Part shown: piece by piece, positions 45,681 to 48,661 of the stretch | Numbering within the stretch: position 1 is the first letter of the stretch | Layout of the letters: each line of letters opens with the position of its first letter | The notes under the pieces: model-generated | What the model was told of the DNA's origin: nothing | Seen by the model: the letters and a program-made list of their open reading frames with translations, nothing else | The model's database searches: none | Assembly: GCA_045047115.1 (NCBI GenBank) | Contig: JASFYR010000025.1 | Coordinates: 1 to 48,661 of the forward strand | Direction: 5' to 3' | Length of the DNA: 48,661 nucleotides | Source of the DNA: Sulfurospirillum sp. | GTDB lineage: Bacteria > Campylobacterota > Campylobacteria > Campylobacterales > Sulfurospirillaceae | Position numbers and translations under genes: made by a program

Positions 45681-47054
45681 CTAAACAGTCTTTGAAAATC
45701 TTCTTTTGCTCTCGGGTATCTTTTTAAGATAAGCATCAAAAGGCATAGAGATGTTTCTTATAAGTAGAGTTCCTGTTGGATTGACTGTTATCTTTTTACA
45801 CTCCTTGTCTATCTCTACAAGCCCCTCAGCCACAAAAGATCTCAAGTCCTCTATGGCATCGCTAAAATAGTCAAAAAAATCAATCCCAAACTCCCTCTCG
45901 ACTCTTGCGATGTCAAGCTTGAAGTTACTCATTAGTTCCATAATCACAGCTTTTCTAAGCACATCATCATCATTCAATTTCAAACCCCTGTGCACAGGTA
46001 AAATTCCATTGTCTATGGCATTTTCATACATCTTCATATCTTTAAAATTTTGCACATAGTGAGCTACGCCTTCACCGATACTGGTCAAGCCAATTCCCAC
46101 TAGGTCAGCTCCGCCTTTTGTAGTATATCCTTGAAAGTTTCTATGCAATTCACCCTTTTCTATCGCCAAAAAAAGCTCATCATCAGGTTTTGCAAAGTGG
46201 TCCATTCCTATCATCCTAAGACCATTTGAGCTTAGATAATCTATGGTATATTTTAAAATTTCCAATTTCTCACTAGGCCTTGGGAGTGTTGTCTCATCTA
46301 TCTTTCTCATAGTCTTTTTCATCCACGGAACATGAGCATAGTTAAAAACGGCAAATCTGTCAGTATCTAGCAAAAGAGCCTTCTGCAGTGTCTTTTTAAA
46401 AGTCTCGAGGTTTTGATACGGCAATCCATATATAAGATCCATATTTACAGACTCTACTCCTGCATCTCTTGCCATTTTTACAGCATTTTGAGTAACTTCA
46501 AAGGGTTGAATCCTGTGTATTGCTTTTTGCACGGTATCATTAAAATCCTGCACACCAAAACTGACACGATTAAATCCACCTCCGACTAAAACATCGACCT
46601 GCCCTTTTGTCAAAAATCTAGGATCAATCTCACAACTAATCTCGGCTTCATCTGCAAAATTTTTAAAATATTTTCTTATGAGCTTTATGATTATATCTAA
46701 CTGCTCTGCACTAAAAAAAGTAGGAGTTCCACCACCAAAATGCATCTGTATAACCTCTCTGCTTGTATCGAGATGTTTTGAGAGAATTTCGAGTTCTTTT
46801 TCAAGATAGCCTATATACCTCTCTTTTTTATCATCTTTACTCGTAAAAACAACATTGCATCCACAAAAATAACAGGCGCTTCTACAAAATGGCAAATGAA
46901 AATACAGAGATAATGGTCTCTTTTTGTCTTGGTTTTCCAAGATATCAATATAAGAACTTGCATCAAAACTCTCATTGAACTCTGGTGCTGTCGGATAGCT
47001 TGTATATCTTGGTCCCGGTTTTGAATACTTTGAAAAAAGTTCGAAATTTATCAT
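45681..47054 (-). CDS. hemN: Oxygen-independent coproporphyrinogen III oxidase
   Basis: GPRYTSYPTA, CRSACYFCGC, HFGGGTPT, IGMDHF, RNFQGY. Confidence 0.97.
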   Translation of the reverse strand: MINFELFSKYSKPGPRYTSYPTAPEFNESFDASSYIDILENQDKKRPLSLYFHLPFCRSACYFCGCNVVFTSKDDKKERYIGYLEKELEILSKHLDTSREVIQMHFGGGTPTFFSAEQLDIIIKLIRKYFKNFADEAEISCEIDPRFLTKGQVDVLVGGGFNRVSFGVQDFNDTVQKAIHRIQPFEVTQNAVKMARDAGVESVNMDLIYGLPYQNLETFKKTLQKALLLDTDRFAVFNYAHVPWMKKTMRKIDETTLPRPSEKLEILKYTIDYLSSNGLRMIGMDHFAKPDDELFLAIEKGELHRNFQGYTTKGGADLVGIGLTSIGEGVAHYVQNFKDMKMYENAIDNGILPVHRGLKLNDDDVLRKAVIMELMSNFKLDIARVEREFGIDFFDYFSDAIEDLRSFVAEGLVEIDKECKKITVNPTGTLLIRNISMPFDAYLKKIPESKRRFSKTV

Positions 47055-47138
47055 TTAACTGTCTCCTTAAACTTGAGCAAAGCCCAAGTTAAATTCCTCT
47101 CACTAAAGCTTATGCTTTGCATAGAATTTATCATTTAA
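47045..47138 (-). repeat. Structured ~80-bp intergenic element, copy 1, with 14-bp direct repeats
   Basis: AATTTATCATTTAA at 47045-47058 and 47125-47138; two hairpins; homologous to 48559-48661. Confidence 0.8.
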
Positions 47139-47636
47139 TTACCTTATTATTTGTTGTGTGGATTGGTTGGCAAATAGATCTTTCAGGTTTAAAAAGAGGT
47201 TGGGGTGCTCTTTCTTTATCTTTCTTAGAAGTTTTTCTAAGTCTATATTGACTGTTTTTGAGTTATTTTTTTTAAGTGCTAGTTTTTTTATCTCATCCAT
47301 AGCTACCGTCCAAACATCCTGATAGTCTATAGGCACATGCTGCAAGATAGTCTTTTCTAATTTCAAATCAAAATTATTTTGTTGCAACTCCCTAAAATTT
47401 TCTATCAACTTGTTCATAGTATCGATAGAAACCATTGCACGCAACTTTTGGTTTTCATCTATAACAAACCATGGCTCCTTGTTGTCCCAACTTCCACTTT
47501 TTAGACTAAGCATTTTTACATCAGGATTATCAGTATCTTCAATCTCTATAACAGTCTCGTACTTTTTTTTATTACTTCCAAAGTACTCATCTATACTGTC
47601 TAATTTATCAAATACACTTATATCTTTTTTATCCAT
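47139..47636 (-). CDS. DUF2603-like conserved Campylobacterota protein
   Basis: L..GSW...EPW, KLEK.I.Q..PID..DVW.VAM, K.EHPNLF; lies between argF and hemN. Start at 47654 is also possible. Confidence 0.8.
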   Translation of the reverse strand: MDKKDISVFDKLDSIDEYFGSNKKKYETVIEIEDTDNPDVKMLSLKSGSWDNKEPWFVIDENQKLRAMVSIDTMNKLIENFRELQQNNFDLKLEKTILQHVPIDYQDVWTVAMDEIKKLALKKNNSKTVNIDLEKLLRKIKKEHPNLFLNLKDLFANQSTQQIIR

Positions 47637-47637
47637 T

Positions 47638-48561
47638 TTACTCTCTCTTTTCATCTAGCCAAACCATCAGGCCTTTTTGTGCATGCAGCCTGTTTTCAGC
47701 CTCGTCAAAGACTATATTCGAATATCGCTCAAGTATCTCCTCGCTTACTTCATATCCTCTATATGCAGGCAAACAGTGTAAGAAAATAGCATCTTTTTTA
47801 GCGTATGAGATCAAAGCATTATCAACTATAAAACCCTCAAAATCCTTAACTCTTTGCTCTTTTTCATCCTCTTGTCCCATAGATATCCAAGTATCTGTCG
47901 TGACAACATCTGCACCATTGACTGCAACTTTAGGGTCATTTGTATATATCACGGCTCCACCACTTTGCTCACATAGCATCTTTGCATCTTCAATGATCTC
48001 ATCCATCGGCTCATACCCTTTTGGTGTAGCAACTCTGAGCTCGAAGCCTAGTTTGGCAGCTAACATCATCCATGAGTGCGTCATATTGTTGCCGTCACCA
48101 ACATAAGCAACTACCGGGTTTTTGTCTTTACCATATTCTATCATAGTCAAATAATCTGCCAAAAGCTGTACCGGATGATACTTGTCGGTCAAACCATTGA
48201 TGATAGGCACTTTTGAGTAAGCTGCAAACTCATCTAAAACGCTTTGTGAATATGTCCTGATCATCACCATATCAACCATGCGACTTATCACTCTTGCGGA
48301 GTCTTTCATCGGCTCACCACGACCCAACTGCAAGTCATTTGAAGACAAAAACAGTCCTTGACCTCCAAGCTGATGGATACCCACCTCAAAACTGATCCTG
48401 GTTCTTGTACTGCTTTTTTCAAAAAGCATACCTAAAGACTGCTTTTGGAGATATGGTATATAGTTTTTAACTTTAGCCTCTTTTTTAATCTTGATACCTA
48501 AATCAATAATCTCCAGTATTTCTTCTTTTGTAAAATCATACAGTGATAAAAAATGCCTCAT
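47638..48561 (-). CDS. argF: Ornithine carbamoyltransferase
   Basis: [40 protein letters not shown]. Confidence 0.97.
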
Positions 48562-48661
48562 ATTATTGTCCCCTTTAAAAGGAGCAAAGCCCCTTTTAAA
48601 TTCCTCGCGACTGAAGCTGCGCCGTTGGCGAGAAGATTACTATTTATTGTCCCCTTTAAAA
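48559..48661 (-). repeat. Structured ~80-bp intergenic element, copy 2 (tandem, truncated by window edge)
   Basis: TTATTGTCCCCTTTAAAA at 48563-48580 and 48644-48661 (81-bp period); two hairpins; shares GAGCAAAGCCC and TTAAATTCCTC with copy 1. Confidence 0.8.

Follow-up and report, generated by a model that had tools for sequence, protein, structure and literature searches.

The short element at the start of hemN in a Sulfurospirillum genome is one copy of a genome-wide repeat family. This family is real and probably undescribed. With a probability of about 60%, we favour the reading that its members are non-autonomous mobile cassettes of ~80 nt, made of a hairpin, a linker, a second hairpin and a tail ending in ATG, which would integrate at A-rich ATGA(AA) sequences. 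ATGA(AA) is the commonest start context and also the sequence at which stop and start codons overlap. At orthologous junctions, units are present in some genomes and absent from others, or swapped for different units; they enter just 3' of ATG(A), bring their own Shine-Dalgarno sequence (SD) and ATG, are bounded by short repeats of variable length and grow in tandem.

The hemN unit and the anatomy of the family

The genome under study (G000) is the 2.14 Mb Sulfurospirillum sp. assembly GCA_045047115.1, and the window, i.e. the whole stretch of DNA analysed, is its contig JASFYR010000025.1 (48,661 nt). The genes argF, DUF2603 and hemN follow each other in this order on the minus strand, on which the features of the window described below also lie. 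A tRNA gene is found at 291-378 on the same strand. hemN (45681..47054) encodes a protein of 457 aa with a radical SAM domain plus HemN_C, and its upstream neighbour, the DUF2603 gene (47139..47654), one of 171 aa. The initial annotation had described an exact 14-nt direct repeat around a 66-nt insert, and this is what the junction contains: the copies lie at 47138-47125 and 47058-47045, with a period of 80 nt. The upstream copy holds the kept old ATG (47134-47132) and the 5' spacer of the unit, and the downstream copy spans the hemN start. The plausible original SD noted ahead of the upstream copy is AAGGT (47145-47141); it overlaps the DUF2603 stop codon and is the same as the SD of a relative's empty allele (L008). 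A 27-aa mini-ORF (47134-47051) translates as had been claimed, and its TGA overlaps the hemN ATG (ATGA). The two hairpins and the new SD of the insert were also correctly seen. Hairpin 1 (47111..47123) has 5 bp, an AAA loop and a C-G closing pair; it is followed by the conserved linker and core AGCTTTAGT-GAGAGGAA (47094..47110), by hairpin 2 (47067..47093), with an 11-bp register, a CTTTG loop and one T.T mismatch in this copy, and by the tail (47052..47068), i.e. the new SD AAGGAGA (47068-47062), a conserved GACA, a spacer and the hemN ATG (47054-47052). The core had been written with a 2-base gap. Written so, it finds no match in the window even when 3 mismatches are allowed, the real gap being 3 nt in the hemN unit and 4 nt at argF.

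A second member of the family occupies the argF start (48553..48643), with the tail GGGGACA. Its upstream junction reads as stop codons, and there is no mini-ORF. It is preceded by the tail of another tandem unit, cut by the contig end (48644..48661; 18-nt repeat, period 81). A covariance model run on the window returned just the hemN and argF units at E below 1e-17, both of which belonged to its training alignment, and the next match had an E of 0.58. Taken alone, the 116-nt hemN stretch folds no better than chance, whether as RNA (z of -0.91, 34/200 shuffles as good) or as DNA (-1.84 and 9/200). The case against chance is made at the level of the family. A single folding model predicts low accessibility of the SD at hemN, which we do not count as evidence. 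A promoter scan of the hemN copy, which may miss the promoters of this phylum, gave two sigma-70-like sites in 46900-47300, neither within the unit, against 1.1 in shuffles.

A nhmmer profile built from 45 seeds gave 82 matches in the genome at E<=0.01; the reversed genome gave none at that cut and one at E 0.076. The covariance-model search that the initial annotation had proposed, with a model built from 46 of 56 listed copies, found 79 matches in this genome, 93 in its closest relative (G003) and 24 in the closed genome G013. Anatomy was taken from 82 parsed units. Each runs from an A/T spacer of 7-9 nt through hairpin 1, an AGCTTYAGT linker with a purine-rich core, and hairpin 2 to the tail. 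Hairpin 1 has 4-5 bp in 74/80 units, with a C-G closing pair in 67. Hairpin 2 keeps a fixed register of 11 bp, at least nine of which pair in 64/77 units. It covaries strongly: 97.4% of 505 cells are paired, and there are 125 double changes vs a mean of 40 in shuffles and 8-37 in slid registers. This covariation speaks against chance, as do the 82 vs 0 nhmmer matches in the real and reversed genomes.

Tails fall into classes. Nearly all those beginning with GG have an ATG 11-12 nt past the hairpin, and GAT tails (16/64 units) have neither ATG nor ribosome-binding site and are placed before the native SD. Core and tail types covary by subfamily. In some arrays (L004, L003, L199, L212, L188), full units are separated by truncated ones and by palindromic modules of other kinds, making mosaics like BIMEs.

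Dispersal, empty sites and turnover

The 87 matches at E<=0.05 correspond to 70 sites in the genome according to a simple gene caller, some of these sites being one array split by a contig break. Where a downstream gene was called it lies on the strand of the unit at 59/60 sites, the exception being inside rnpB, and none of the 60 is convergent (length-weighted chance roughly 5e-4). The upstream gene is co-directional at 55/59 sites where one was called. The link to translation starts proposed from the hemN copy extends to dozens of unrelated genes, ahead of which units carry their own SD and ATG. Of the 45 downstream proteins with references, 24 were scanned and 20 named, and the named genes, which include secY, rplM, rplK, rplL, rpoC, dnaK, clpB, guaA, purE, glmM, nadC, pdxA, nfo and flgG, have no common pathway. 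We also considered that units might leave SD scars genome-wide, which we reject since the strict tail occurs at only 3/1640 non-element starts of the genome. No accessory gene recurs beside units among 555 ORFs.

Across the order, the exact core pattern matches 104/401 genomes, many of them with a single match that may be due to chance; the reversed pattern, used as a control, matches 8 genomes, once or twice each. Counts of core matches are 4-69 in the genus itself, high in two neighbouring genera, 0-1 in the 20 genomes of a third genus and patchy elsewhere. Within one family they range from 0 to about 70 per genome. The strict pattern was found in 0/53 and 0/60 of the genomes searched in two large families of the order, viral contigs have no exact core match, and plasmids and phages no blastn match. 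Five genomes of five other families, chosen because they matched, have 4, 48, 17, 13 and 8 model matches, and their units retain the architecture and the position. In one genome of another family (G091), near-identical units of ~130 nt stand ahead of unrelated genes at 7/7 loci fetched, which is the best sign of a recent burst.

Relatives do have empty orthologous sites at the DUF2603-hemN junction, as the initial annotation had suggested checking. Among 13 genomes of the genus, 8 are filled, with 1-3 copies of differing hairpin variants, and 5 are empty, one of them with another upstream gene. Outside the genus, 1/17 loci is filled. Filled and empty states interleave on the hemN tree (23 of 30 loci), with an empty row sister to a filled one at 99/94. 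Unit sites are not conserved between close relatives. When 48 sites of the genome were compared with ~1.1 Mb, about half, of the closest relative, 22 had no orthologue there, 19 were filled and 7 empty; in the reverse comparison, 48 sites of the relative gave 8 without orthologue, 21 filled and 19 empty, in classes that are not all clean, as at least one 'filled' site is a neighbouring opposite-strand unit and two units of the relative are partial. Where the pair is clean, the unit follows the native SD and ATG(A), which stay in place upstream, and the coding sequence of the gene continues behind the ATG(A) that the unit brings. At two sites, the start is GTG in the empty allele and ATG once filled. 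For units with a GAT tail, the point of entry is A-rich sequence that precedes the native SD. At most junctions, the difference may reflect either gain or loss of a unit.

Turnover is also visible among strains. Contigs ~98% identical to the window show five changes in the hemN unit, of which one restores a pair, one gives a G.T and two match the linker variant of other copies. One such run has a different unit at argF. Contigs of four runs, which can show presence only, include no element-free joined form.

Genes behind ATG-ending units start with ATGA in 29/31 cases and ATGAAA in 20/31, vs 56% and 18% of 1601 genes. The corresponding values are 32/33 and 18/33 in the closest relative and 79/85 and 48/85 in metagenome loci, and other families agree. 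The 14-nt repeat, which had been taken as a signature of the element, is in fact peculiar to the hemN site; the closest relative, with the same unit and junction, shares only ATGA. Nor is it a target-site duplication of fixed length: in 52 single units the end repeats vary between 3 and 18 nt; a length of 14 is seen in 3 of these units and is no mode, which makes hemN an upper-tail case. Matching bases are in clear excess 5' of the ATG (187 vs 93), partly where the upstream SD already resembles the element tail, and in small excess 3' of it (257 vs 240, p=0.007).

Relay frames, mobility and alternative explanations

We examined 96 distinct units that keep an SD-preceded upstream ATG. The resulting ORF stops within 4 nt before the new ATG, or overlaps it, in 77 of them; 3 others share the frame of the gene, 13 terminate early and 3 overrun. 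The 80/96 coupled or in-frame cases compare with a mean of 15.7 and a maximum of 27 in 1000 sets of shuffled interiors, and with 42 or 16 when the register is shifted by one base, these counts being of non-independent events as units are kin and orthologues may be numerous among the metagenome loci. Of the 96 units, 66 have a period of 83 or 80 nt; these periods are reached by differing lengths of spacer, loop and core, and the encoded peptides differ. This indicates that the frame is kept, not the product. A conserved peptide can be rejected, for frames differ between subfamilies and strain changes are mostly non-synonymous; in the ~98%-identical contigs the mini-ORF of hemN is still open with 3/4 changed codons non-synonymous. 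In a longer variant from another family there is an in-frame ATG, and the ORF ends 1 nt before the gene in 6/6 loci. The gene behind a unit should thus stay translatable via the new SD and ATG and the relay ORF. The earlier proposal that a rebuilt SD and translational coupling avoid polarity holds as regards the unit's own SD and ATG and the strong bias towards coupled mini-ORFs; avoidance of polarity would be their presumed consequence.

Some copies lie away from such starts. SD-less variants precede the native SDs of rplK, rplL, dnaK, flgG and purE. Helix P12 of RNase P RNA contains a whole unit in three divergent rnpB genes (G000:C9:162528-162927; the second rnpB of G003, L182; and L427 in G023, of another genus), all with an SD-less GAAGA tail, and the other 9 rnpB genes found in the genus have no unit in P12. 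Other members of the genus have long but unrelated P12 extensions (L176, L177, L181), and the contig that bears the second, divergent rnpB of G003 measures about 2.5 kb and could derive from a different organism. The closest relative has a hairpin-2 module in place of a plain stem in the leader of rpsJ, the closed genome has four tandem units between rplA and the rplJ leader, and both have a degenerate antisense copy between two tRNA genes; these gene identities are presumed, having been recognised by eye. The copies in P12, the rpsJ leader and the tRNA spacer suggest that the target is a short sequence, not translation itself, with selection acting later.

Under the mobile-cassette reading, each insertion would regenerate the target at the 3' end of the unit, so that arrays could grow in tandem, and units could be deleted or converted when their repeated ends recombine. 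Selection would then spare copies only if the downstream gene can still be translated. Survival might come from a relay ORF that stays free of stops up to the new start and ends there, from loss of the old start or from an SD-less variant placed ahead of the native SD. The weakest step is the movement itself: an unlinked enzyme, of the HUH (Y1) type most plausibly, might act in trans on folded single-stranded DNA. Insertion geometry and loop types make us prefer HUH-type single-strand movement, and we regard this enzyme step as doubtful. Among 139 distinct hairpin-1 loops there are 42 GNYA, 43 triloops and 16 GNRA. Loops of the GNYA and triloop types are stable in DNA rather than RNA. One might go further and speculate that the element is translation-transparent by design, i.e. 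enzyme-driven towards ATGA(AA), with frame, length (80 or 83 nt, both 2 modulo 3) and tail built to turn the host start into a coupled relay ORF. This we hold tentatively, at odds well short of even. If true, an unlinked protein acting in trans would mobilise such an element, to which essential operons (secY, rpoC, guaA, hemN) as well as RNase P RNA could then be open.

In the genome there are an IS200-type Y1 gene, two RAYT-like ones whose core domains score below the NF047646 cut-off and a single IS110, and no match to the reverse transcriptase domain PF00078 (RVT_1). The initial annotation had suggested looking for a co-occurring Y1/RAYT or other transposase. Y1 genes do exist, but units flank not one of the 32 Y1 loci examined, three of which have a single unit before a nearby gene; this counts against the mobile-cassette reading. 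The ORFs of 150 element loci include a single Y1 or IS110 match, a gyrA-linked gene. The closed genome has no mobile gene within 1.5 kb of its 24 matches, and its only Y1 is IS200-type. Distribution also counts against it: there are 26 core matches in a genome without a Y1 match (G072, 90% complete), and a genus (g3) with Y1 genes has 0-1 core matches. Since Y1 loci are unflanked and their distribution does not track copy number, we assign no mobilising enzyme. Units show no significant replication-strand bias (36/50 leading vs 1046/1700 genes, p=0.14).

Several of these mobile genes have features of their own. Both RAYT-like genes bear inverted repeats of the GGGGWSAS type known from TIRYT (PMC3733652, PMC6006769). 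A TIRYT-like Y1 gene (G000:C3:14312-14959) sits between inverted arrays of the word GGGGACAG, near short gene pairs that by eye resemble toxin-antitoxin modules. Another (G000:C7:19779-20543) has inverted repeats of GGGGTCAG, and its kin of 253-269 aa lie just upstream of a gyrA-like gene in many members of the family (L151-L169), a position that suggests a long-kept, domesticated gene. The single IS110 (G000:C9:125473-126669) has a long upstream non-coding stretch and is inserted at the SD-type word of a neighbouring gene. In the IS200/IS605 element (G000:C20:18120-19951), the tnpB-like ORF is apparently split after 58 codons.

Might the units instead be mainly RNA-level modules, such as mRNA stabilisers, processing sites or protein-binding leaders, positively selected and copied by ordinary recombination or gene conversion without a dedicated mobility enzyme? 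We consider this unlikely. Hairpin-2 mismatches read on the sense strand are 52 G.T, 5 A.C and 14 others, the G.T excess recurs in metagenome loci (134 vs 23 A.C), in the closest relative and in other families, and the sense strand is thus the folded one. This excess and the near-strict sense orientation fit an RNA role equally well, and the absence of convergent sites, the covariation of core with tail and the SD-less variants before rplK, rplL, dnaK, flgG and purE, in the rplA-rplJ spacer, the rpsJ leader and P12 also speak for it. Yet, the sites are not conserved between close relatives, the downstream genes share no pathway, genomes of a single family have anything between 0 and about 70 core matches, loops are mostly neither GNRA nor UNCG, and a degenerate but conserved copy runs antisense to a cluster of tRNA genes.

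The resident enzymes offer more specific alternatives. It seems quite improbable that the repeat derives from the terminal inverted repeats of TIRYT (subclass 2.1 Y1) and is mobilised by that gene. The arrays around G000:C3:14312-14959 do consist of a 10-11-nt word that ends the commonest subfamily, and this word fits the GGGGWSAS motif in the TIRYT repeats described in PMC3733652 and PMC6006769. But the resemblance stops at that word, which also serves as an SD; the tails of other subfamilies finish with GGAGAC, GATGAC or GAAGAC, no hairpin or core match occurs near these genes, and gene presence and element number do not track across genomes. Movement of units in trans by the IS110 bridge recombinase has very little to commend it beyond the presence of one such gene at an SD-type word, and we give it hardly any credence: its ends share a CTCCT-type core, whereas the unit crossover is at ATG(A), beyond the native SD and spacer, and no IS110 match lies beside the 150 element loci or the 13 sites of the closed genome.

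As mobile cassettes, these units represent a route by which selfish DNA can live inside compact, essential operons. In this genome, about 30 genes have had their SD and start codon reset by units, which thus could tune expression between close species. They also cause false N-terminal extensions in gene calls and break assemblies, as 19/82 contig ends of this one carry a unit.

Comparison with known systems

The initial annotation recognised no named family, and Rfam has no match to units in the window at gathering score, in 8 of the genome's own loci at E<=1 or in 8 loci of relatives at gathering score. A literature search, conducted mostly outside subscription journals and figures, returned no published description of the repeat. 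The suggested classification as a MITE- or REP-like mobile element is right insofar as units are dispersed and non-autonomous; their anatomy is neither that of MITEs nor that of REPs, with no terminal inverted repeats, GTAG foot or flanked transposase. Unlike MITEs, units have only internal hairpins and no target-site duplication of fixed length. Unlike GTAG REPs and REPINs, they lack GTAG at the 5' foot of the hairpin and flank no RAYT gene. Nevertheless, they resemble GTAG, CGTC and TGTC REPs, REPINs and BIMEs, as portrayed in the relevant parts of PMC3733652, in their short hairpins with variable stems and conserved feet, their clusters and their patchy copy number, and CGTC families have no linked transposase either in that account. 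The reverse complement of the unit tail starts with TGTC, as in TGTC-tagged REPs. Yet, the tag of CGTC and TGTC REPs is at the foot of an 8-9-bp stem starting with AT, with a CCA tail, whereas the antisense TGTC of the unit is 3 nt from an 11-bp stem starting with TT. According to PMC3733652, REPs are located towards the 3' end of the gene upstream, in many cases where two genes converge, and most CGTC elements are head-to-head dimers, whereas our units are fixed to the downstream start and form direct tandem arrays. Identity with MITEs, GTAG REPs or CGTC REPs is thus rejected on their defining features.

Insertion 3' of a short target and hairpins near the ends would fit HUH chemistry, as with IS200/IS605 ends and TIRYT in the description of PMC6006769, whose motif is matched by one tail word. 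Unlike these, units have no associated gene and no significant replication bias. The stop of the mini-ORF overlaps or abuts the downstream start, as in the termination-reinitiation coupling at ATGA overlaps outlined in PMC6728339; here, in contrast with coupled gene pairs, the overlap is made by a dispersed repeat. The copies in P12 also have a parallel. Rickettsia palindromic elements occur in rnpB/tmRNA, so that there too a palindromic repeat is tolerated in RNase P RNA; these elements are known for inserting in frame inside proteins, not for targeting start codons.

Judged by architecture, and likened from descriptions rather than sequences, the closest known kind appears to be Neisseria REP2 and Borrelia IR-A. 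REP2 and the Borrelia plasmid repeats IR-A/IR-B are dispersed, have two internal stem-loops without terminal inverted repeats, and finish at the 3' end with a ribosome-binding site plus an ATG that immediately precede unrelated genes (PMC3184786, in its treatment of these repeats), as does our G-rich-tail class, the GAT-tail class having neither. REP2 is given there as 120-150 bp long, in 23-26 copies, carrying a promoter and marking co-regulated genes; our unit has ~80 nt and 79-93 copies. Unlike REP2, it is found mostly between co-directional genes and retains the old start within a coupled mini-ORF. Tandem arrays, subfamilies that lack an SD and copies within RNase P RNA are further differences. 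What is new here is the empty-site geometry, the ATGA targeting, the relay-frame statistics and the RNase P copies. The same source gives the mechanism of spread of REP2/IR-A-type repeats as unknown and leaves their origin open. To the question of how REP2-like repeats spread, the present family brings many empty/filled pairs, a target word, turnover at the level of strains and a measurable survival rule.
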